From positions 32,001 to 96,000 of the IMG/VR virus record IMGVR_UViG_3300021185_001174: a stretch of 64,000 nt of DNA. The stretch is one strand, 5' to 3'. The first letter of the stretch is position 1; the number at the start of each line of letters is the position of its first letter. A model generated the notes under the pieces. That model had not been told where the DNA came from. It saw nothing but the letters and a program-made list of their open reading frames with translations, and ran no database searches. The translations under genes and the position numbers were made by a program. This DNA comes from a virus. Shown here piece after piece: positions 1 through 56,854 of the stretch.

Positions 1-397
1 CTCCTTCATAACCATCAGCCCACCAAGTTAAATCTGTATCAGAATCAAGAGTATTCCATGCAACACCTTGGGCAACTTTCATTTGATTACTAGTACCACT
101 TACTTCATCAAAGATTATTTTATTAATGCCGTCACTATCATTAACTTGTACTAAATACATTGATAAGCTTGATGCATTAATATATGAACCACTATCTTTC
201 ATTTCAATTCTATTATTATATCCTATCTGGTCAATACCTAACTGTAAATTATTACCCGACTGCTCGATACTAATAACATTGTCATCGGCATTTGCAATTA
301 GTGGTAATAAAAGACCGGCCAATATAATAATAGGCCAAAACAGTATACTTATCCATATTAAAGCTTTCATTGAGTATTCTTCTATCTTATCTAGCAT
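1..397 (-). CDS. Curlin-like secreted protein, 5' part only (runs off window); not in the ORF track
   Basis: Manual translation from ATG at 397: MLDKIEEYSMKALIWISILFWPIIILAGLLLPLIANADDNVISIEQSGNNLQLGIDQIGYNNRI...; the mature N-terminus closely matches DDNEIMIEQSGDTLTLYIDQIGYGNKI of ORF 1465-2205. Confidence 0.75.
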   Translation of the reverse strand, partial: MLDKIEEYSMKALIWISILFWPIIILAGLLLPLIANADDNVISIEQSGNNLQLGIDQIGYNNRIEMKDSGSYINASSLSMYLVQVNDSDGINKIIFDEVSGTSNQMKVAQGVAWNTLDSDTDLTWWADGYEG

Positions 398-398
398 T

Positions 399-1511
399 TT
401 AATTCACCTGATTTATATATATGAGGATGTCTTCACTATCGTTACCTGTTATTACTCCATTCCATGTTGGTGTAATAGTATCTAGTGTAAAGTTACCACC
501 CGCCGCTAATTTTATTCTTATAATTCCATTTACGTTTCTATATAGTACTAAACTACCATCTTGCAAAAATACATTATATTGGGATTCATCATTAAATCCT
601 CTTGCGGCTCCTTTGATATCAAACTCGCCTAATGTATCGAATAAGTCTTTTGAATCTAAAATATCCAATACGTCAATTAAATATTCAACATCCAATTCAT
701 CTATATCCAATTCAGTAAAATCTAAATCCGTTTCTTCTTCTAGTGCATCTTTCTCTAATTCATCAAACTCTAAAAAGTCTATATCTAAAAAACCTTTATC
801 ATCATTCTGTTCATCTGCCAATTCTTCCTGAATCTGGTCTTTCACTTCCTGTGGGGGTGAAACGATAAACATATTATCAATGGACGCTGGTGTGATTCCA
901 TTTATTTTAACTGGCCTTGTTGGTGCGCTATCTAAAGTACTCACCATTGTTGCTTGATAAACTTCGGTTAGAGTTACTACTCCACCTAAATTTTCTACCT
1001 CTATTTCACCCGATGGGTCACCATTCTCATCAGGTAATAATATAATTAAAGACCTTCCTAACTCATCTACTGTTGTGGTAAAGTCCGTACCTCTTATAGC
1101 AATGGATGCCGTAGGGGTAGATATATCAATATTAGCCTTATTAACCAAACCTAATCTACCCGAAGCAAACCTGGCTGTACCCATTGTGAACTTCATTGTC
1201 ATTTTGGAAAGGGATGGGTCAGCATCATAATATACTTCGTCAATTAAGACTTCGGTGTGTTCTTTTAGAGATAACTGAGCCTTATCTAAAAACTCAATTA
1301 ACATCTTACCCTTACCAGTTTCGGCAACGTCATTTAGTTGCACAGGTATATTATTTAATACCTTTATCTCTTCATTATTTCTTAGTATTTGCCCAACACC
1401 TATGGACTCTACAATACTCCCAATATCATCATCCGCAAAGGAATTTGATACCAGAAGTAATGTACTAAGAATCGCCGTTTGTATCTTGCTGATTAATTTG
1501 TATTGTTGCAT
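399..1511 (-). CDS. FecR-domain exported protein with acidic C-terminal region
   Basis: Signal-peptide-like N-terminus; FecR-type pattern D...TG...M.IEFLD...L.EHTEV.ID and ISTPTASIAIRGTDF. Confidence 0.75.
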   Translation of the reverse strand: MQQYKLISKIQTAILSTLLLVSNSFADDDIGSIVESIGVGQILRNNEEIKVLNNIPVQLNDVAETGKGKMLIEFLDKAQLSLKEHTEVLIDEVYYDADPSLSKMTMKFTMGTARFASGRLGLVNKANIDISTPTASIAIRGTDFTTTVDELGRSLIILLPDENGDPSGEIEVENLGGVVTLTEVYQATMVSTLDSAPTRPVKINGITPASIDNMFIVSPPQEVKDQIQEELADEQNDDKGFLDIDFLEFDELEKDALEEETDLDFTELDIDELDVEYLIDVLDILDSKDLFDTLGEFDIKGAARGFNDESQYNVFLQDGSLVLYRNVNGIIRIKLAAGGNFTLDTITPTWNGVITGNDSEDILIYINQVN

Positions 1512-2205
1512 TGTCTGATGTTATATCTAAATTAATTACTGCATTAGGTGAAACACAAGCAACACCTGCTCCAGTGGCACATGTACCACTAATTTGATTA
1601 ATATCAATATCTGCACTATCGCCAACTAATTCAACGACCATTGATTGAGCTCCATCATTCTGCAATGTATTAATGTTATTACTATCTCCAGTAATATCAA
1701 AAGTCCATGTAGAATCATCTGCTTCAAAGTCTAGGTCGAATATATTAGAGCTACCAATTAAAATTAAATCCGCATCTAATCTTTCAGCACTATATACATA
1801 ACCTTGGTCTAAATCAAATGTATTACTATCTCCAGTAATATCAAAGTTATAATCTGAATCGTCCGAACTACCGACATAGCCGATATTCCAGTCCACCTCG
1901 TTTGAATCTCCCAGTAATGAGAACGTCAAAGAAGATGAATCTAAGTCCAAAGGACCATAAATTAAATTCTGATTTCCGACCATATCAATATCAAATGTTA
2001 ATGATGAACCAACGATAGTCATATCAGAACCAGATGATGAAAAATCATCTAATCCAATTTTGTTACCGTATCCGATTTGGTCAATATATAGAGTTAAAGT
2101 GTCACCACTTTGTTCTATCATAATCTCATTATCATCTGATGCTTGTGCAAAAAGAGAAGGAGTCAACAACAAGCTTAAACTTAAACTAATTAATGTTTTC
2201 TTCAT
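1465..2205 (-). CDS. Curlin (CsgA/CsgB)-like beta-solenoid protein
   Basis: Signal peptide (SLFA-QA); repeated N-x-I-x-I-x-Q-x-G / GDSN units rich in D/N/S/G/I; directly downstream of csgG. Confidence 0.7.
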   Translation of the reverse strand: MKKTLISLSLSLLLTPSLFAQASDDNEIMIEQSGDTLTLYIDQIGYGNKIGLDDFSSSGSDMTIVGSSLTFDIDMVGNQNLIYGPLDLDSSSLTFSLLGDSNEVDWNIGYVGSSDDSDYNFDITGDSNTFDLDQGYVYSAERLDADLILIGSSNIFDLDFEADDSTWTFDITGDSNNINTLQNDGAQSMVVELVGDSADIDINQISGTCATGAGVACVSPNAVINLDITSDNATIQINQQDTNGDS

Positions 2206-3124
2206 TTTTCTTTTCCTCTATTGAGTGCCTTTCGTTTTTCCCATCATGTTGATGAGGATGTCTATGGCCCTCGGTTAAATTCCAGAACTTACGGTCATGA
2301 CCCTGGTATATTAATTCAAGTACTCCTGCCTCTATGGCTGCTCGTACCGCATATGTCACACTCTCATTATTTCCCACTCCGTCCTCGTATTCAATTAGTT
2401 GTGTACCCTGTTCATAGAACCTGAATACATCACCACTTGAACCATAAGAAAGAACCGACTTCTTACTTTGGACGTTTAATAAAACTTCACCAGTTAAGAC
2501 TGAAACTGCTCTAATTGCAACAGTTACTACATCTTTCCTATACATTCTACTATAACCAATACCAAGTGTCCTTGCGCCTCGACCACCTGTTTCAGTATTT
2601 GTATCATAACCAATAATGCCACCTTCAATAATTATTCCAGCGAATAAAAGTGGACCCAATTCCTTTGCAGTGTTTCCTTGGCTCTTGGCCATGTCTTGTC
2701 TGCCGCTACGGATAATCTGTCTTTCTCTTACTAGATTATCAATACCTTGTCTTTCTGCTACTCTAAACCATGTACCGCCACCTGCAGTCTTAAGAGCATC
2801 TATTAACATTTCAGTACCGCCTTGGGTAACTGCAGTAGAGAATGAAGCTATGTTATCTACTGATTTTCTTTGTCCAGTTAAATCTTTAAATGAATAAACT
2901 GCAACAACTGGTCTATCTTTTGCTGGTGGTAAATTTAATAAATCTACAAATGCAGGTAACTTAACAGCTGTAGGATGGTCAACACATATATACTTACGAG
3001 ACTTAAATTGATTCCATAAGTATGGTTCATCATCAGCACATTTCTGTGGGTCTTTCGACCACTGCGGTATAGAAGCACAACCACTTAAAAATAAAATAGA
3101 TATTAATAAAAGTCTAACCATCAT
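2186..3124 (-). CDS. csgG: Curli secretion channel CsgG (lipoprotein)
   Basis: Lipobox LSGC; VAVYSFKDLTGQRK, FSTAVTQGG, WFRVAERQGIDNLVRERQIIR, IIEGGIIGYD are CsgG hallmarks; start refined to MMVRLL. Confidence 0.93.
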   Translation of the reverse strand: MMVRLLLISILFLSGCASIPQWSKDPQKCADDEPYLWNQFKSRKYICVDHPTAVKLPAFVDLLNLPPAKDRPVVAVYSFKDLTGQRKSVDNIASFSTAVTQGGTEMLIDALKTAGGGTWFRVAERQGIDNLVRERQIIRSGRQDMAKSQGNTAKELGPLLFAGIIIEGGIIGYDTNTETGGRGARTLGIGYSRMYRKDVVTVAIRAVSVLTGEVLLNVQSKKSVLSYGSSGDVFRFYEQGTQLIEYEDGVGNNESVTYAVRAAIEAGVLELIYQGHDRKFWNLTEGHRHPHQHDGKNERHSIEEKKNEENIN

Positions 3125-3608
3125 CTGGGTCCTGACTAAAATTACCAGCACCTACTGGTATTTCTATGATAGTTTCGGAACCATCTTCTGTTATAATTGT
3201 CATTCTTATTACTTCTGAACCATCAGCATTAGTAATAACTTCGTATGTTACTGTAGAACCTTCTAATACAAATGAACCAAATCTAACAGAATCATCATTA
3301 CTAAACATTGATTCTACTAGTTGTTTTGCCATCTGTGCATATATTCTACTCTCTAAGTTCCTAATAAACTTGGCCAATACACTATTATCTTCTTCTCTTT
3401 CTGCGGCTCTTCTTGCGGCTTCTAAAGCATCTTCTATTGCTTTCTTTCTAGTATGTTCAATATTATCTATGGTAAGATAATGGTTACCAGTACCAACTCC
3501 ACTAAAGGATGGATTTTTAAACCCAAATTTTATTTCATCTGCCAATACTGGATATGATACTATAAATAATACCATAAGTAAAAGCACAATATTTCTAATC
3601 TTCATCAT
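3114..3608 (-). CDS. csgF: Curli assembly component CsgF-like
   Basis: Signal peptide then EIKFGFKNPSFSG, matching the CsgF N-terminal F-x-F-x-NPxFxG motif; FIRNLESRIYAQ; immediately upstream of csgG. Confidence 0.85.
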   Translation of the reverse strand: MMKIRNIVLLLMVLFIVSYPVLADEIKFGFKNPSFSGVGTGNHYLTIDNIEHTRKKAIEDALEAARRAAEREEDNSVLAKFIRNLESRIYAQMAKQLVESMFSNDDSVRFGSFVLEGSTVTYEVITNADGSEVIRMTIITEDGSETIIEIPVGAGNFSQDPDDG

Positions 3609-3867
3609 TATTTTCTTTCGCCTCATTAATAACTTGTTGTCTAGCTCTATATTCTAAAACTACATCAACTTTTTGTTGTAACCTAATTAAATCTTGGTCC
3701 AACATTCTTGTCTGGTCTATAACTCTTATAAGAGCTATATGCATTTCATCTAACTTTGGTTCTATATGTGTATTAATAAATGACCAAACATAGTAAATAA
3801 AATAACCCATCCCAACTGCCATCACAACAGGGAAACCATATTCAGATATTAACTGAGCAATATCCAT
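3595..3867 (-). CDS. Small membrane protein with one N-terminal TM helix and coiled coil
   Basis: ISEYGFPVVMAVGMGYFIYYVW hydrophobic segment; same layout as 3867-4163. Confidence 0.7.
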   Translation of the reverse strand: MDIAQLISEYGFPVVMAVGMGYFIYYVWSFINTHIEPKLDEMHIALIRVIDQTRMLDQDLIRLQQKVDVVLEYRARQQVINEAKENNDED

Positions 3868-4163
3868 TAGTCTCTCCTAGTATCTAGCTTTCCATCTTCT
3901 ATAAAGTTTTCTGCCCTAGCTATTCTAGTAGTATCTGGTCTTAAATCTAACGCTGACGATACCAATAAATCTATTTTAATCATTTCATTACTCATTGTTC
4001 TACATCTATTCTCCAATGAATTAGCAAATATTGTTAGTGTAGTAATCTTATCTACTATACCTTCCATTATTTGTTTTATTACAATAAAGATAAATACTCC
4101 CATTACAAGAGAGCCTGCAATAGGTGCACCAACGTCCGCAATAAGTTTAAATACGTCTTCCAT
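3867..4163 (-). CDS. Small membrane protein, probable paralog of 3595-3867
   Basis: IADVGAPIAGSLVMGVFIFIVI TM segment; its stop abuts the start of the next gene. Confidence 0.7.
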   Translation of the reverse strand: MEDVFKLIADVGAPIAGSLVMGVFIFIVIKQIMEGIVDKITTLTIFANSLENRCRTMSNEMIKIDLLVSSALDLRPDTTRIARAENFIEDGKLDTRRD

Positions 4164-4168
4164 GTATC

Positions 4169-4176
4169 TATTTATA
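4169..4176 (-). promoter_or_regulatory. T4-type late promoter TATAAATA heading the curli-like operon
   Basis: Exact TATAAATA 5 nt upstream of the ATG at 4163; gp55 is encoded in the window. Confidence 0.8.
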
Positions 4177-4229
4177 AGGCTTAGGCGCCCAGATGCTATA
4201 ATCCCTCCAATTTCTTAGAGGGAAAATGC

Positions 4230-4493
4230 TTAGTGAGTTTGTGCTAGTTTAACAGCCTTTACACCAGTAATACTATTAGCTACTTCAAGAGTTTCTGTAA
4301 TAGCCTTTCGAATATTTACAACTTCTCCAGTATTAACTGTTACTGAGCCTACTGTATTTGAACCTTCTTTAATGGTTACCAACTGTGCAGCGGCATTAGT
4401 GTTAAGGACTCTAACAAGTGAAGCACGTGATACATTAGAAGCAGTATTACTTAGTGCTACTTCTACTGCCTTTACTTTAATTGTCTCGGCCAT
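4230..4493 (-). CDS. Small beta-rich hypothetical protein, possibly virion-associated
   Basis: 87 aa ORF with GGAG RBS, V/T/N/A-rich, in a late region. Confidence 0.6.
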   Translation of the reverse strand: MAETIKVKAVEVALSNTASNVSRASLVRVLNTNAAAQLVTIKEGSNTVGSVTVNTGEVVNIRKAITETLEVANSITGVKAVKLAQTH

Positions 4494-4504
4494 TTTTTCT
4501 CCTA

Positions 4505-4696
4505 TTATGAACTAACTAAATTTAGTTCTTCTAAACTTTTGTGCCAATCTGAGTATCTGAAAAGTCCTTGCTTTTCATGACACCAATACCAGCCCTTACT
4601 TTCTTGTTGCTCTTGTGGAATACTAGATTCTACCCTTAAAGGGCCTCTAGCCTTTTCATAAGTCTTTCGGCTCGTTTCGTTACCTGTTTGTGCCAT
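4505..4696 (-). CDS. Small hypothetical protein (GWYWC motif)
   Basis: Fills the gap after lysozyme; start uncertain, overlaps lysozyme 3' end. Confidence 0.4.
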   Translation of the reverse strand: MAQTGNETSRKTYEKARGPLRVESSIPQEQQESKGWYWCHEKQGLFRYSDWHKSLEELNLVSS

Positions 4697-5103
4697 CTTG
4701 AATCTCTGCCTTCTACAGCAGCCTCCTTCCAATCACCACACTGCAGCGCTGCATTGTGCTTTCTAAATTTACTTAAGCGCGTAAGTCCCATATTAAACAT
4801 CATATTTGCCACTATTTGTTTTACTTCTTCTGGATATCCATCCCATCCTTCATGTAATGTTTTACAGTCAGCGATGACAGTCTGTACATCTTTCTCAAAG
4901 CAATCAACTGTTCGTTCTTCTGATACTGGAGTTCCAACAGGTTGCCCAAACTCTGGGTCTGTTTCGAGGACCAAGTGTCCAATTCCGAAAGTTGGGTAGC
5001 CCAGATGGTCTTTATAAATCTCGTTAACCTTACCTTCATCAAATGTCAATTGCTCCCTTAACTGGTCAATATCAATATCTTTATTTTTTCTTCCGAATAA
5101 CAT
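4636..5103 (-). CDS. e: T4-type lysozyme (endolysin)
   Basis: DEG...IYKDHLGYPTFGIGHL catalytic motif (E-8aa-D-5aa-T); MMFNMG; W...RAERL. Confidence 0.92.
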   Translation of the reverse strand: MLFGRKNKDIDIDQLREQLTFDEGKVNEIYKDHLGYPTFGIGHLVLETDPEFGQPVGTPVSEERTVDCFEKDVQTVIADCKTLHEGWDGYPEEVKQIVANMMFNMGLTRLSKFRKHNAALQCGDWKEAAVEGRDSRWHKQVTKRAERLMKRLEAL

Positions 5104-5226: not shown

Positions 5227-5928
5227 TTATACTATTCCAGTAAATTTAAAGTATTGGTCACCATTAGTTGATGGAGTTCCACTATTACCCATATAGGCAC
5301 TTAGTGGATGTGTAACTCCCAAATTGGCCATATTCCAAAACCAATATGCCTCAGAATAGCCCGTATAGTTACTATTACCAAAGGAGCTTGCAGCTGTTCT
5401 ATTAAATGTGAATGTTGGACTACCACTATCATTTGACTGGTCAGCATAGTACTCTATTGCAGTAAATCCTGAATTTGATAATGAAGTTGTGCCAGTACTT
5501 CCAGTGCGTTTCATATATAAAACGAAGCTATTAGCATTAGTGCTGTTAATCCCAAACCAACCAACTCTGGTACATATTAAATTTGTGCTTGAGCAACTTC
5601 TTCCACCAAATGTAATATTATTGCCTTCAACAATAGTATCATCATCAATAGTACCACCTTGGCCTGAAACTGAAGGATTTGCAGTATATTCTGAAGTATA
5701 AGAAGTAACGTACTGACTAGCAAAAACCACATAATCGGGCTGTACAACCATATCATATAATACTTCTGCACTTTTTCCATAAAAGTCAGCTAATTCGATT
5801 TCACCTGAAGCTACTCCAGCAAGGGTTCTAAAGTTTGCATCATTAAGAGTATATTGTCCTGGGCCGCCTATATCAAGTTCGGTAACGATATCTCCCATCG
5901 CAATCTGGCCTGAAGTTTGTAATGGCAT
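5227..5928 (-). CDS. Virion fibre/receptor-binding-like protein
   Basis: N-terminal MPLQTSGQI...SGEIELADFYGKS module typical of marine phage fibre proteins; S/T/G/N-rich C-domain. Confidence 0.6.
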   Translation of the reverse strand: MPLQTSGQIAMGDIVTELDIGGPGQYTLNDANFRTLAGVASGEIELADFYGKSAEVLYDMVVQPDYVVFASQYVTSYTSEYTANPSVSGQGGTIDDDTIVEGNNITFGGRSCSSTNLICTRVGWFGINSTNANSFVLYMKRTGSTGTTSLSNSGFTAIEYYADQSNDSGSPTFTFNRTAASSFGNSNYTGYSEAYWFWNMANLGVTHPLSAYMGNSGTPSTNGDQYFKFTGIV

Positions 5929-5931
5929 TTA

Positions 5932-6786
5932 TTACGCCTCTTCTCTTGTATAAGCCTTAATATGAGTAAACGCACGAGTAGTTGTATTATATACACAACC
6001 CCAAATCATTAATTTTGGTTTAATACTTGAGTCACTAATATTATAGGGAAATGTGTACGAATTTTCAGTACACCATTCTTGCATTGCATCTGCATCAGCT
6101 AAGAAATATACATCAACATGTTCATTTACATTATTGGACTTATCATGTATTCTAGCATAGAAGTGATAATCACCCATAGGTAAGTTACTTGATACATTAG
6201 TATAAGTAACATCATCTACTCTTAACATTTCTTCAGCAGGAATAACAAACTTAGCCAATACTTCTTCTGTAGTCTTATCAAACTTTAAACCATACCATGG
6301 CATATATTGTTCATAACTTGCACCAAATGTTGTTTTAATTTCATCAGATGGTTCTTCAAAGTTATAAAAGGAAATACTATCATTAGTATAAGGTGGTCTC
6401 CGCGCTGGGTATTCTGCCACTGTGTTTTTAGGATGTGTTGTATATGAAGAAACCTCATTCGGCCAAGTAGCTTGTAATTTAGCAATTATTGCTTGACCTT
6501 GTGTTGTACCTATTGCATAATCTTCTCTTGCTAAACTTCCACCCATATAGGTTTTATCAAGTACGTTTGTTTCATTTACTTCCCTAGTAACATCAATCTG
6601 AGCTTTAATAGAACCAAACTGCTCATGATAAATTTTTAAAACTTTATTTTCTGATGCACTGGTATTTAAAGTAGAATCATTATTTACTTCAGAGGGACTT
6701 TCGATAGTAATATTATCTATTGAAAGTGTAGTAGTATAACCTGATGGTGATTCTAAATTTTCAGTGTGTGTATATGTAAATGCCAT
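5932..6786 (-). CDS. Hypothetical protein between two fibre-like genes
   Basis: 284 aa ORF tightly packed with neighbours. Confidence 0.6.
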   Translation of the reverse strand: MAFTYTHTENLESPSGYTTTLSIDNITIESPSEVNNDSTLNTSASENKVLKIYHEQFGSIKAQIDVTREVNETNVLDKTYMGGSLAREDYAIGTTQGQAIIAKLQATWPNEVSSYTTHPKNTVAEYPARRPPYTNDSISFYNFEEPSDEIKTTFGASYEQYMPWYGLKFDKTTEEVLAKFVIPAEEMLRVDDVTYTNVSSNLPMGDYHFYARIHDKSNNVNEHVDVYFLADADAMQEWCTENSYTFPYNISDSSIKPKLMIWGCVYNTTTRAFTHIKAYTREEA

Positions 6787-8171
6787 TATGATAGTCCTGT
6801 TATTGCTATTGTGTGTGTATCGTTATTACTAGGTGTAGTGTTAATACCAAAGTAATTAGAGTATGATTGATTTGTGTTCCAGGATAAAAATGCTCTAGTG
6901 TAACTACCACCGTCAGTAAAGGATAAAGTTGCACTACTAATTGGTAATGTTAAATCAGGAGTTCCTGAATTATCAGATTGGTCTAAATAAATCTCAACAG
7001 CCGTAAACCCTGTTTTGGTCCATGAAGTTCCGTGGTCAGGACTATGGTCTTCAAGCGATATACTAAAAGCAGAACTTACGGTTGACGAATTAGTACTGGA
7101 AAAATAAGCACTTTTTATCTGTATATCATTTGTATTTCTAGTAAGGCCGCCAAATGTAATAGGACCACTATTTGGAAATGTTGCATCACCTAGTGTATCA
7201 TCTATTCCTGCAAAATTGGTGTCGGTGACCATATAGCCACTATAATAGTAGGTAGTATAACCTGCAGTAAACCCCCAATAATCAGGCAATATAGTAGTAG
7301 TATGGGTAATTATCTGAGGTACAAAAGTCTTACTATAAAAATCAGAAAATTTAATCTCTGCAGGAGGACTGCCTTCTTCTGGGATTCCTGTTACATTACC
7401 TATAACATCACCATTTTTATAATAGTCGGATATAGCAACGTTAAGATTATCAGCACCGGTCATTTCTTCTGCAATACCCGTATTAAGTGTAGTAGTTGTA
7501 GTACCAGATATAATTTCTACATCATAACTAGTACCAGCACTAGGAGTACCTAGGGACGTTATCGCATTATATACAGTTCCAGAACTTCCATGCCATTCCC
7601 ACCAGCTATTTCCAGCTTCGTTTTGGTCATAGGCTAAATCAGTTCTATTTATTGTTACTGCAGTTCCACCATTAGTTGTAATTTTAATCTTTTCAAAAGT
7701 ATTATCACTATTAGTAACACTAGAGCCTGATAGCGCAAAACAAAAAACTCTATTGCTTGCATTGGGCGGAGGTGATGCATCGGGTAAGCCCCAAGTAAGT
7801 ATTTTTATTGTCCTAGAGATTAATCCAGCATCTGAATATGAAGTAGAACCTAGACTTCCGTATGCACTAGTGCTGGTAAATTTTCTAAATTCATTGGCTG
7901 CTAATGGAGCATTCATTGGCCATCTCTGATGAATATAACTACTAGAAAAGTTACTAGCCGCAGAGTTAAATCCATACATATCACCTTTCCAGACTTCGGT
8001 CGCTATATAGCTGCCATCTTCATTTTGTTCTACATTTTGTATCATTGACATTAACGCATCAAGACCAGTTGTCATAGTAGTATCGAGCAACTGTGTCTCT
8101 ACCGTAGTAGAAGGATTAGTATCATTTAATCCTTGTAATTTTATTTCACTTCCTGAGGCTACTAAGGTCAT
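6786..8171 (-). CDS. Virion fibre/receptor-binding-like protein; C-domain paralogous to 5227-5928
   Basis: EIKFSDFYSK module; shared PDY, ITFGG, GFTAxExYxDQSxxSGxP motifs. Confidence 0.6.
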   Translation of the reverse strand: MTLVASGSEIKLQGLNDTNPSTTVETQLLDTTMTTGLDALMSMIQNVEQNEDGSYIATEVWKGDMYGFNSAASNFSSSYIHQRWPMNAPLAANEFRKFTSTSAYGSLGSTSYSDAGLISRTIKILTWGLPDASPPPNASNRVFCFALSGSSVTNSDNTFEKIKITTNGGTAVTINRTDLAYDQNEAGNSWWEWHGSSGTVYNAITSLGTPSAGTSYDVEIISGTTTTTLNTGIAEEMTGADNLNVAISDYYKNGDVIGNVTGIPEEGSPPAEIKFSDFYSKTFVPQIITHTTTILPDYWGFTAGYTTYYYSGYMVTDTNFAGIDDTLGDATFPNSGPITFGGLTRNTNDIQIKSAYFSSTNSSTVSSAFSISLEDHSPDHGTSWTKTGFTAVEIYLDQSDNSGTPDLTLPISSATLSFTDGGSYTRAFLSWNTNQSYSNYFGINTTPSNNDTHTIAITGLS

Positions 8172-33805: not shown

Positions 33806-33881
33806 TGGTGGAGCTGGAGGGAATCGAACCCCCGACCTTCTGGTTGCAAACCAGACGCTCTCCCTACTGCGCTACAGCCCC
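33806..33881 (-). tRNA. tRNA-Ala(UGC)
   Basis: Cloverleaf GGGGCTG...CAGCTCC-A-CCA, anticodon loop TTTGCAA, G3:U70, TTCGATT T-loop. Confidence 0.97.
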
Positions 33882-45952: not shown

Positions 45953-48460
45953 TTATCCAAAAAAGTCCTCTAAACTTGAAGTTTCTTCGGTATTCCATCC
46001 AATCGCCTTGAAGATAGGTTCTATAGGGTCAAGGAATGTTTTTTGAAATTGTGTCTCGTAATCTATATAGGAATCCAATTCAAACTCTTTTGGGAGATAC
46101 TGCATGAAGCCGATTACATTTTCTTTGATAGGATTGGGTGACTTGAGATATATAAATTTAATCTTCTCGCCATTCTTAATTGGCTGATACTTTTTGGTCA
46201 GACTTTTATTCTTTAACATTCTGTTATGGAGTAGAGCGGCACGAACATGCATTGGACAACCCTTCTTGTAAATGGTCTGCATATTTGAATACTCTGTAAC
46301 ATTACTAACGCCACGAGGGAATGCAATATCATGGGCTGGTAATGTTTGGAAGTAATCCTTGAATTGTAAGATAGCCTGTTGATTATCTTTCTCGGAACCC
46401 TTCATAATTACTTTGAACAATTCTTTAAGAGCATCTCGGCAAGGGGCAGGAGTTGAAGATTTAATAGCCTCGATACCCATGATTTTGAGTTTAGGTTCTT
46501 TGTATCGAACACCCTCGTTATCATGCACGTTTAGGATATATCTTTTCTTGGCTGTCCATATGGCACGGTCTGCAATGGCCTCTCTTTTCATAACCATACG
46601 ATTATCGATGCCACCCATATGGTCAAACAGTTCTTGATATGCCTGACTAAGGACTGGTTCTAGTTTTTCACTAGCAACTTTATCAAGAAAGTCAACCGGA
46701 TTGGATGGGTTAACCTGTTCGACCAATGGGCCAAGATTAACATAGAGCGAGTCTGTGTCAATGGCAATGATATAATCGGTATCTGTGTTCATGACTTTAT
46801 TTAGGTATTTATTTAAAGCGACTTCTGCCCAACGGATAGTAAGCTGACCAGATAATGTAATTGCCTCTGCAATACGTTGGTCAAAGAAACGGAAGTACTT
46901 GTTACCCATAGCGCCATAGAGTGAGTTAAGTAGAATTTTAATAGCCATCTGTTGATTTTCTGCCACGGATATTTTACGTTCTATATCATAGAGTTTTTGT
47001 TTATCACCAGGAACTACCTTCTGTAATTCTTTCTGAGCCTCAATCATCTGTTTCTTGATTATGACACGTTCACTATATAAATCATCTACTAGGGTAGGCA
47101 TCATGCCTTTCTTATCACTACTAAAGCATTGACCATTACCGCCTACAGCATGACCATCTCGGTCAAAGGTATACCCATCAAGTATCTTATCGATATTGAT
47201 AGGAAGGACTTGGCCGTTTAAGATAGTTTCGGGCGACATATTATATTGCATAATGATTGACGGATAGAGAGAGTTAAGGTCAAACGATACCACGTGTTCG
47301 TGTAAACCAACTACTGGGTCTTTTACATATCCGCCAGGGTAATTAGTCTTAATCTTATTCTCGGAGAATGGCATTGCAATCTTTCGGTCATTGAGATATC
47401 TGTAAATAATAGTATCCCAGATTGCAGTAACTCCGAACGTGTCCGAATAGTTAACGCCACCTTTATATGCCATAGTCAACATAAGAGTGATAAGGCCCAT
47501 CTTGTCTTCTAGTCTGTCAACCAACTCAACATCTTTGATATTATAATCAATAAACTTTTGGTGGTCATTTTTGTATAGACTATGGAGTGAGCCGTATTCT
47601 TCATATGACAGTTTCTTCTCGCCTAGAATAACGTGAGCAATATGATTAAGAGCATAAGATTCTTGGGCTGTGTAAGTATACTTCTGAAATAGTTCCATGT
47701 AATCTGCATGACCAATACCCTTGATATCAAAGATAGTCTGTTCTCTGTTCATTTTACGAGCAGTTCTTCTGTCTACCATACCCCAAGGAGAAAGCCTTTT
47801 AGGAGCATCATCACCAAGCATTCTGATAATACGATTTACAATGTATGGTATATCAAAGTACATAGTATTCCAGCCAGTAATAACATCAGGACATTGACTA
47901 GGTAGTGACCAGTGATTAATAAAATTATGTAATAGTGTAAGTTCTGATTCACATTTTACATAGACTACGCGGTGTGATTTCATATAAGATTGGTCTGTAT
48001 CGAAATCTCCAAGACCCCACACATAATAAGTATTGTCAATATTGTTCTTCATCGCAATGGATATGATAGGGTGTTCTGCTTGTTCTGGTTCTGGGAAACC
48101 ATCATCGGAAGCAACCTCGATATCAATAGAGGTTACGTTGATTAGGTTACGATTAAATTCTATCTCGCCAGGGAACTGGTCGTTGATAAACTGGGATATG
48201 TATCTGTCATTGCCATAGATTTCTCTACCAGCAGTATGCTTATTGATATCCATCCAGTCTTTAGCCTCACGCATAGAATCGAACTTGATAGGTGCACATG
48301 GATTACCATCGAGCGAAGTCCAATCTCCCTGCGGAGTATTTACGAATAAGGTGGGTTTGTATTTGATGCGCTTTGCAACTTTAGTGCCATTTTCATAGCC
48401 ACGATAAAGTAACATATTCGCATATCGAGTTACATTTGTATAAAAATTCATATAGTCCAA
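45953..48460 (-). CDS. 43: Family B DNA polymerase (gp43)
   Basis: DIEV (ExoI), GWN..YFDIPY, FDLNSLYPS, KILLNSLYG, IDTDS. Confidence 0.98.
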   Translation of the reverse strand: MDYMNFYTNVTRYANMLLYRGYENGTKVAKRIKYKPTLFVNTPQGDWTSLDGNPCAPIKFDSMREAKDWMDINKHTAGREIYGNDRYISQFINDQFPGEIEFNRNLINVTSIDIEVASDDGFPEPEQAEHPIISIAMKNNIDNTYYVWGLGDFDTDQSYMKSHRVVYVKCESELTLLHNFINHWSLPSQCPDVITGWNTMYFDIPYIVNRIIRMLGDDAPKRLSPWGMVDRRTARKMNREQTIFDIKGIGHADYMELFQKYTYTAQESYALNHIAHVILGEKKLSYEEYGSLHSLYKNDHQKFIDYNIKDVELVDRLEDKMGLITLMLTMAYKGGVNYSDTFGVTAIWDTIIYRYLNDRKIAMPFSENKIKTNYPGGYVKDPVVGLHEHVVSFDLNSLYPSIIMQYNMSPETILNGQVLPINIDKILDGYTFDRDGHAVGGNGQCFSSDKKGMMPTLVDDLYSERVIIKKQMIEAQKELQKVVPGDKQKLYDIERKISVAENQQMAIKILLNSLYGAMGNKYFRFFDQRIAEAITLSGQLTIRWAEVALNKYLNKVMNTDTDYIIAIDTDSLYVNLGPLVEQVNPSNPVDFLDKVASEKLEPVLSQAYQELFDHMGGIDNRMVMKREAIADRAIWTAKKRYILNVHDNEGVRYKEPKLKIMGIEAIKSSTPAPCRDALKELFKVIMKGSEKDNQQAILQFKDYFQTLPAHDIAFPRGVSNVTEYSNMQTIYKKGCPMHVRAALLHNRMLKNKSLTKKYQPIKNGEKIKFIYLKSPNPIKENVIGFMQYLPKEFELDSYIDYETQFQKTFLDPIEPIFKAIGWNTEETSSLEDFFG

Positions 48461-56777: not shown

Positions 56778-56854
56778 TGGCCCGCCCTTCAGGACTTGAA
56801 CCTGAAACCTACAGCTTAGAAGGCTGTTGCTCTATCCAGTTGAGCTAAGAGCGG
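56778..56854 (-). tRNA. tRNA-Arg(UCU)
   Basis: CCGCTCT...AGGGCGG-G-CCA, anticodon loop CTTCTAA, TTCAAGT T-loop. Confidence 0.96.

Follow-up and report, generated by a model that had tools for sequence, protein, structure and literature searches.

A probable curli-type (type VIII) secretion cassette in an uncultured marine T4-like myophage

We analyzed a 64,000-nucleotide stretch of viral DNA (hereafter the window), which covers bases 32001-96000 of the 120.8 kb IMG/VR virus record IMGVR_UViG_3300021185_001174 (record completeness estimate 67%), and focused on the minus-strand gene cassette at window positions 1-4176. With a probability of roughly 55%, we assign this cassette to the pelagiphage-type type VIII (curli) secretion cassettes already published and consider that it works by secreting fibres. 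An earlier note, made from the letters of the window alone, had proposed a phage curli-like secretion operon that carries its own cargo, and this central idea is already published (PMC7029224, PMC9004378, PMC9599517). Since a module of CsgA/B, FecR and cyclase genes was described between 2020 and 2022, the window holds another member, and a divergent one, of a known kind. Our own small additions are structural evidence in favor of the curlin assignment, a reading of which constriction-loop residues are kept, a late promoter motif, small upstream proteins without a kinase domain, and the FecR-CHASE2 pair as a separate bacterial unit.

Organization and conservation of the cassette

Seven minus-strand open reading frames (ORFs) occupy positions 1-4176 of the window, encoding the small transmembrane (TM) proteins TM1 (3867-4163; 98 aa) and TM2 (3595-3867; 90 aa), CsgF (3114-3626), CsgG (2186-3151, with the likely true start at the ATG at 3124), the curlin-like β-solenoid CurA (1465-2205; 246 aa), a FecR-domain protein (399-1511), and the N-terminal 132 codons of CurB, the second curlin-like paralog (2-397, open at the window edge). 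The earlier note had described just such a contiguous unit, and all seven reading frames were recovered, overlapping or abutting: the overlaps amount to 1 nt for TM1/TM2, 32 nt for TM2/CsgF, 38 nt for CsgF/CsgG, 20 nt for CsgG/CurA and 47 nt for CurA/FecR, while the FecR and CurB ORFs are separated by 1 nt. Its list of parts also held, with CsgG, CsgF and FecR scoring above their Pfam cut-offs and the curlin-like pair being paralogous. As that note had expected, the unit continues off the window; upstream DNA of the record completes CurB (G000:C1:31636-32397, L004:11636-12370/12397; 244-253 aa) and adds a 614-aa protein with CHASE2 and class III adenylate cyclase domains (G000:C1:29712-31556, L004:9712-11556, before the window). 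Because the CHASE2 cyclase gene follows CurB, the unit comprises eight genes and not seven, and these eight genes are translationally coupled and encode envelope proteins.

Synteny analysis by tblastn, extended beyond the window edge, revealed the same eight-gene order in Pelagibacter phage HTVC008M and Methylophilales phage Melnitz, the SAR11 and OM43 myophages for which the earlier note had mentioned csgF and csgG, and in every IMG/VR locus that extends far enough (33 fetched). The GenBank records of HTVC008M (KC465899) and Melnitz (MZ577097) already label the repeat proteins 'curlin-associated'. The full module was also present on nine phage contigs (L038-L046) binned into bacterial metagenome-assembled genomes (MAGs); as phage contigs that were binned into MAGs, they are uninformative on the host, and host inference from the bins is unsafe. 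The MAG labels of these bins, which are species representatives, are Rhodobacteraceae, Rhodobacterales, Sphingobacteriales and Flavobacteriales, and two of the contigs measure 121-142 kb, the size of a myophage genome. Pairwise ratios of nonsynonymous to synonymous substitution (dN/dS) against five relatives were between 0.05 and 0.2 for all eight genes, with dS saturated in several comparisons. Purifying selection acts on all eight genes.

Predicted secretion channel

CsgG scored 183 bits against the Pfam PF03783 cut-off of 20.8 (E 5e-54), and its residues 64-294 matched E. coli CsgG structures with an E-value of 4e-46. A lipobox, L-S-G-C, was read in the sequence, and the protein is predicted to be an outer-membrane lipoprotein. 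We took the constriction residues of E. coli CsgG to be Y51, N55 and F56. In the HMMER alignment F56 is kept as F104, whereas V98 stands in place of Y51 and S103 in place of N55; of the pore-forming residues on which the earlier note had let its reading depend, one is therefore kept and two are changed. CsgF was recognized by PF10614 at 48.6 bits (cut-off 25.8; E 1.2e-12) over profile positions 4-132 of 132, the N-terminal segment included, and by phrog_35372 (E 9e-33). It carries a signal peptide, followed on the mature N-terminus by the motif F-x-F-x-N-P-x-F-x-G. With the phage CsgF as query, phmmer retrieved none of the E. coli CsgF chains in the PDB.

Curlin-like repeat proteins

By hhalign (99%, E 7e-18), CurA and CurB are paralogous, and inspection of both sequences revealed Sec-type signal peptides. 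When all six frames of the 120.8 kb record were scanned, these two proteins provided the only Curlin_rpt sites, CurA reaching 23 bits, over the Pfam cut-off of 20.7 bits. Only the first rung of CurA and CurB matches Curlin_rpt, and in CurA homologs this first-rung match was found in 18 of 18 sequences (best E 7e-5). In NCBIfam, CurA matches only CsgA and CsgB, far below cut-off. BLASTP paired CurA with a Balneolaceae protein at E 4e-12, and CurB with the same protein at E 0.005; this protein matches Curlin_rpt with E 8e-20, is encoded 3.4 kb away from a CsgG gene, and is a genuine bacterial curlin. A profile search with CurA across 1.84 billion representatives retrieved 373 clusters, and ten of the longer, more distant CurA-like clusters, when scanned, gave Curlin_rpt matches that were sub-threshold at most and no useful names. 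One distant CurA-like cluster, P0244, is located on a contig of 399 kb.

AlphaFold2 (AF2) models of CurA and CurB, built on natural alignments, were all-beta, with predicted local distance difference test (pLDDT) values of 72.7 and 77.5, respectively. The earlier note had tied its reading to a solenoid fold of the repeat proteins, and both models are indeed β-solenoids, with two strands of 7-9 residues per 22-26-residue repeat and, in CurA, ~8-9 rungs. The top PDB structure match of both models was CsgA of Pontibacter korlensis (8c50_A), with Z 16.1 over 202 residues for CurA and Z 14.0 over 187 residues for CurB, each at 18% identity; the root-mean-square deviations of the CsgA matches are high (>9 Å), and CsgA ranked first only with the slower, exhaustive all-against-all structural aligner. 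The comparison of CurB with the E. coli CsgA fibril gave Z 9.2, and tail spikes appeared in the match lists at Z ~10-11. The most conserved segments of CurA are its first and last rungs, a pattern that fits a head-to-tail stacking interface without proving stacking. The probable kinship of CurA and CurB with curlins is supported by the modelled fold together with one pairwise match to a genuine curlin.

Putative sensor genes and small membrane proteins

The FecR domain was detected by Pfam PF04773 at 30 bits, against a cut-off of 24 (E 7e-7), and the protein matched phrog_37870 with E 1e-59. It has a signal peptide and an acidic C-terminal half, with neither an anti-sigma nor a TM part, and is predicted to be soluble and periplasmic. 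In the cyclase, an N-terminal TM helix is followed by a CHASE2 domain (E 2.5e-36), by more TM helices and by a class III cyclase domain (PF00211 Guanylate_cyc, E 3.8e-19) that is closest to P. aeruginosa CyaB (3r5g, E 1e-31). Aligned with CyaB, it keeps the metal Asp pair, the ATP-specifying Lys/Asp and the transition-state Asn/Arg, the roles of these residues being those we presume. The FecR-domain protein and the CHASE2 cyclase would make half of the cassette a signalling unit.

To place this pair among bacteria, we examined samples of loci. FecR-domain matches occurred in 121 of 401 sampled Alphaproteobacteria genomes, and at the 20 best alphaproteobacterial FecR loci a CHASE2 or CHASE2-cyclase gene lay within 10 kb of FecR in nine, with CsgG present in none. 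Neither FecR nor cyclase was found nearby in any of seven alphaproteobacterial CsgG loci (CsgG 44-49% identity) or in any of 71 other bacterial CsgG loci, mostly of Bacteroidota and Methylococcales, and a bacterial operon with the fused architecture was not found among these 71 + 7 CsgG and 20 FecR loci, which are samples only. S. meliloti has a cyclic AMP (cAMP) pathway that includes both a CHASE2 cyclase, CyaD1, and a FecR-domain protein, SMc02177 (PMC5498481), and this pathway also requires the outer-membrane protein NsrA (PMC7529298). In Burkholderia, a LysM-FecR protein adjoins a CHASE2 histidine kinase that controls biofilm (PMC5192318), and FecR and cyclase are not part of bacterial curli operons (PMC9599517). 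Because the FecR-CHASE2 pair occurs in bacteria without CsgG, the phage cassette looks like a type VIII secretion system (T8SS) fused with an independent FecR-CHASE2 sensor, in agreement with PMC9599517.

TM1 and TM2 are small bitopic membrane proteins, and paralogs, since both match phrog_18771 (E 1.8e-22 and 2.6e-25, respectively). TM1 has a single N-terminal TM helix followed by a helical tail, precedes CsgF in each of the 34 loci long enough to show it, and matched no Pfam and no NCBIfam family. Small upstream genes are labelled 'histidine kinase' in PMC9599517 and, judging by gene order, this 'HK' presumably corresponds to TM1/TM2-type genes. HisKA and HATPase_c were matched by neither protein at E <=0.1 in Pfam or E <=0.01 in NCBIfam, and a histidine-kinase reading of TM1 and TM2 was rejected on the result of these scans. 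TM2 weakly matches a holin PHROG (E 1.3e-4), and the named Atlas clusters nearest to it, YvrJ (0.88) and Holin_BhlA (0.85), are leads only; the holin matches are far too weak to count, leaving a holin reading of the two proteins as a weak lead.

Upstream region and genomic context

An exact copy of TATAAATA, which we take to be the T4 late promoter consensus, lies on the minus strand at 4169..4176, 5 nt before the TM1 start codon. Of 34 related loci, 19 carry the same motif no more than 60 nt upstream of TM1. Across the window, 16 of the 17 TATAAATA octamers are on the coding (minus) strand, with a total count not enriched in comparison to shuffles, and this strand bias is consistent with T4-type late promoter use throughout the window. 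From these observations we infer that the motif acts as a promoter and that the cassette is expressed late. A short CCCTC/GAGGG hairpin (4203..4221, minus), read directly between the upstream 87-aa gene and the module, was not called by the terminator scan, and a sigma-70-like site follows the cyclase gene, in a promoter scan that was overall not above chance. About 470 nt separate the module from an upstream phage lysozyme gene (4636-5103, minus; 155 aa; Pfam Phage_lysozyme E 1.4e-7), and a single 87-aa gene lies in this interval (both genes in the region 4230-5103, minus). Most close relatives have lysozyme at this same position, unlike HTVC008M and Melnitz.

The record contains a T4-like phage gene set, including a gp43-type DNA polymerase, a DnaB-like helicase, ribonucleotide reductase and an SbcC-like nuclease, and the carrier of the cassette is an uncultured marine T4-like myophage. 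Phage C48C1 and cyanomyophages gave the best matches to its DNA polymerase (45953-48460, minus), and neither HTVC008M nor Melnitz is among the 12 polymerase matches listed. Because no cultured phage has a polymerase more than 51% identical to it, the lineage is distant from the cultured cassette carriers. The minus strand of the window also encodes tRNA-Ala(TGC) at 33806-33881 and tRNA-Arg(TCT) at 56778-56854. Two neighbouring minus-strand ORFs, 5227-5928 (233 aa) and 6786-8171 (461 aa), had no PHROG match and have in common a C-terminal domain of ~200 residues (BLASTP E 1e-14, 29% identity). Possibly the two are paralogs, either fibre-like or for host recognition, in the variable region beside the curli module.

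Discussion

A curli cluster in pelagimyophages was reported by Zaragoza-Solas et al. (2020; PMC7029224), who proposed a fibre-mediated 'sibling capture'. Buchholz et al. (2022; PMC9004378) modelled the CsgGF of Melnitz, called csgA and csgB absent, and proposed a pore for lysis timing. In myo- and podo-pelagiphages alike, Wittmers et al. (2022; PMC9599517) described CsgF, CsgG, CsgA/B, FecR, another CsgA/B and an adenylate cyclase; they detected transcripts of the module among ocean metatranscriptomes and inferred that it came from Alphaproteobacteria and was passed from myo- to podophages. The window shares with this pelagiphage module the order of small protein(s), CsgF, CsgG, curlin-repeat protein, FecR, second curlin-repeat protein and adenylate cyclase, as well as the lack of CsgE, CsgC and CsgD. 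It differs in a CsgG that is only 44-47% identical to those of the cultured phages, in the lysozyme gene just upstream in the window phage's clade, and in small upstream proteins that show no kinase domain. With the enterobacterial csgBAC-csgDEFG system the phage cassette shares the CsgG lipoprotein channel, CsgF, and a pair of paralogous repeat subunits that bear signal peptides and whose models are two-sheet solenoids; however, it is without CsgE, CsgC and CsgD, does not keep Y51 and N55 of CsgG, and has an envelope sensor pair inserted into the operon. The phage subunits, in contrast to those of enterobacterial curli, have 8-9 longer rungs, few Gln/Asn ladders, a very acidic composition and a Cys pair, and are without the Gly-rich N22 leader. 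As in bacterial FecR and CHASE2 pairs, a secreted FecR-domain protein is encoded next to a membrane protein whose CHASE2 domain is periplasmic and whose output is cytoplasmic, this output being likewise a class III adenylate cyclase in S. meliloti CyaD1/SMc02177; the bacterial pairs are not CsgG-linked in the sampled loci, and the fusion was seen only in phages. The Caulobacter holdfast system HfaABD also has a CsgG-like protein, HfaB, which phage CsgG matches weakly (E 6e-6), far below its match to CsgG (E 2e-50). HfaD was neither sought nor seen, and HfaABD is a distant cousin only.

According to the reading that we favor, the cassette would be transcribed late, from a T4-type late promoter, and infected cells would receive a CsgG/CsgF channel in their outer membrane by way of the host's Sec, Lol and Bam machinery. 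CurA and CurB would then pass unfolded through this channel and stack on the surface as curli-like fibres or a coat, with CurA or CurB as a possible nucleator. The FecR-domain protein and the CHASE2 cyclase would form a second, originally independent unit that senses the periplasm and converts an envelope signal into cAMP. Fibre secretion is in this sense a proposed function of the cassette. The ecological pay-off, already discussed in the literature, could be speculated to be aggregation or 'sibling capture', receptor masking, or superinfection exclusion.

Several observations weigh against fibre secretion. On the side of the channel, two of the three CsgG constriction residues are unlike those of E. 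coli, with the Phe replaced by Leu in HTVC008M and Melnitz, and CsgE was unmatched at E <=0.1 in the 120.8 kb record (67% complete). CsgC was likewise unmatched at this threshold in the record, in line with the earlier note, which saw no csgE, csgC or csgD; CsgE and CsgC are not universal outside Gammaproteobacteria (PMC9599517). On the side of the cargo, hmmscan left Curlin_rpt below the cut-off, with 18.7 bits for CurA and 16.6-19.1 bits for CurB. The claim that the operon carries its own curlin-like cargo is supported in silico by paralogy, signal peptides, solenoid models with CsgA as the best match and dN/dS of 0.05-0.2, and falls short at the hmmscan threshold. SufD-type beta-helices nearly equal CsgA as a match to CurA (Z 15.5 vs 16.1; within about one Z unit), Foldseek returned nothing from the PDB at E <=1e-3, and sequence and profile searches of PDB chains with CurA and CurB did not find CsgA. 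In most CurA rungs, Asp, Ser or Thr replace the Gln/Asn ladder; mature CurA is very acidic (18.6% D+E), and the isoelectric point of both mature proteins is ~4. A C-terminal Cys pair is conserved in CurA and CurB and, if oxidised in the periplasm, could hinder passage via a channel of ~1 nm. Finally, the authors of the Melnitz study saw no clumping or fibres (PMC9004378).

This last observation also speaks for the proposal of Buchholz et al., in which CsgGF is a gated outer-membrane pore, or a pinholin-/secretin-like valve, that times lysis; the remaining proteins would serve as its gate or plug, and fibres would not be produced. The late promoter motif directly upstream, the lysozyme gene ~470 nt away in the window phage's clade and most close relatives, the weak holin-like matches of TM2 and the altered constriction residues all speak for such a device. 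However, holins work at the inner membrane while CsgG is a predicted outer-membrane lipoprotein, the lysozyme gene is unlinked to the module in HTVC008M and Melnitz, the holin matches are far too weak, and two conserved, secreted, curlin-related solenoids under purifying selection would be left unexplained; we regard a pore without fibres as unlikely. Equally unlikely, in our estimation, is a device in which CsgGF together with the solenoids acts as the input at the outer membrane or surface and FecR relays it to the CHASE2 cyclase, the true output being late-infection cAMP that alters host or phage gene expression or lysis timing. The FecR gene does lie between both curlin genes, with overlapping reading frames, and at nine of 20 alphaproteobacterial loci that are without CsgG, no more than 10 kb separates FecR from CHASE2 genes. 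The shared cAMP pathway of CyaD1 and SMc02177 (PMC5498481), with its need for NsrA (PMC7529298), and the Burkholderia LysM-FecR gene beside a biofilm-controlling CHASE2 histidine kinase (PMC5192318) point in the same direction. Yet podophage versions are often without the cyclase and the second curlin gene (PMC9599517), and therefore signalling cannot be the whole function. The stronger form, in which the cassette is mainly a phage-built trans-envelope sensor of contact, superinfection or envelope damage whose cAMP pulse sets lysis timing or host reprogramming, seems to us quite improbable; it would be a functional analogue of T4 lysis inhibition, working via a fused secretion-plus-signalling system whose fusion was not found in the sampled bacteria.

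An import role, in which a CsgG pore left ungated without CsgE admits nutrients or cofactors to the infected cell, was raised in PMC7029224 and PMC9599517 and would accord with the unmatched CsgE in the 67%-complete record. Under this reading, CsgF, the two solenoids, FecR and the cyclase go unexplained, and late expression would give little time for nutrient gain, which makes it very improbable. The earlier note had also offered that the fibres might be built into virions. Beta-helical proteins are common in tail spikes, tail spikes are among the structural matches (Z ~10-11), and the promoter is of the late type; but T4-like virions assemble in the cytoplasm, whereas CurA and CurB have cleavable signal peptides and Cys pairs of the exported type, and the genes lie between the replication and structural blocks, alongside secretion genes. 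With signal peptides on every product arguing against it, a virion role is the least credible of the alternatives, and we rejected it on the signal peptides of CurA and CurB.

Phage curli cassettes were detected at all 65 GOV2.0 stations (PMC9599517) and are widespread in the surface ocean. In the two cultured cases, SAR11 and OM43, the cassette gives cells a secretion system that is absent from the host. The analysis sharpens the questions of solenoid export, of the role of the FecR-CHASE2-cAMP half, and of the nature of the two small membrane proteins. The window reveals no new kind of system, but the myophage lineage in which it places the cassette is remote from the cultured carriers.

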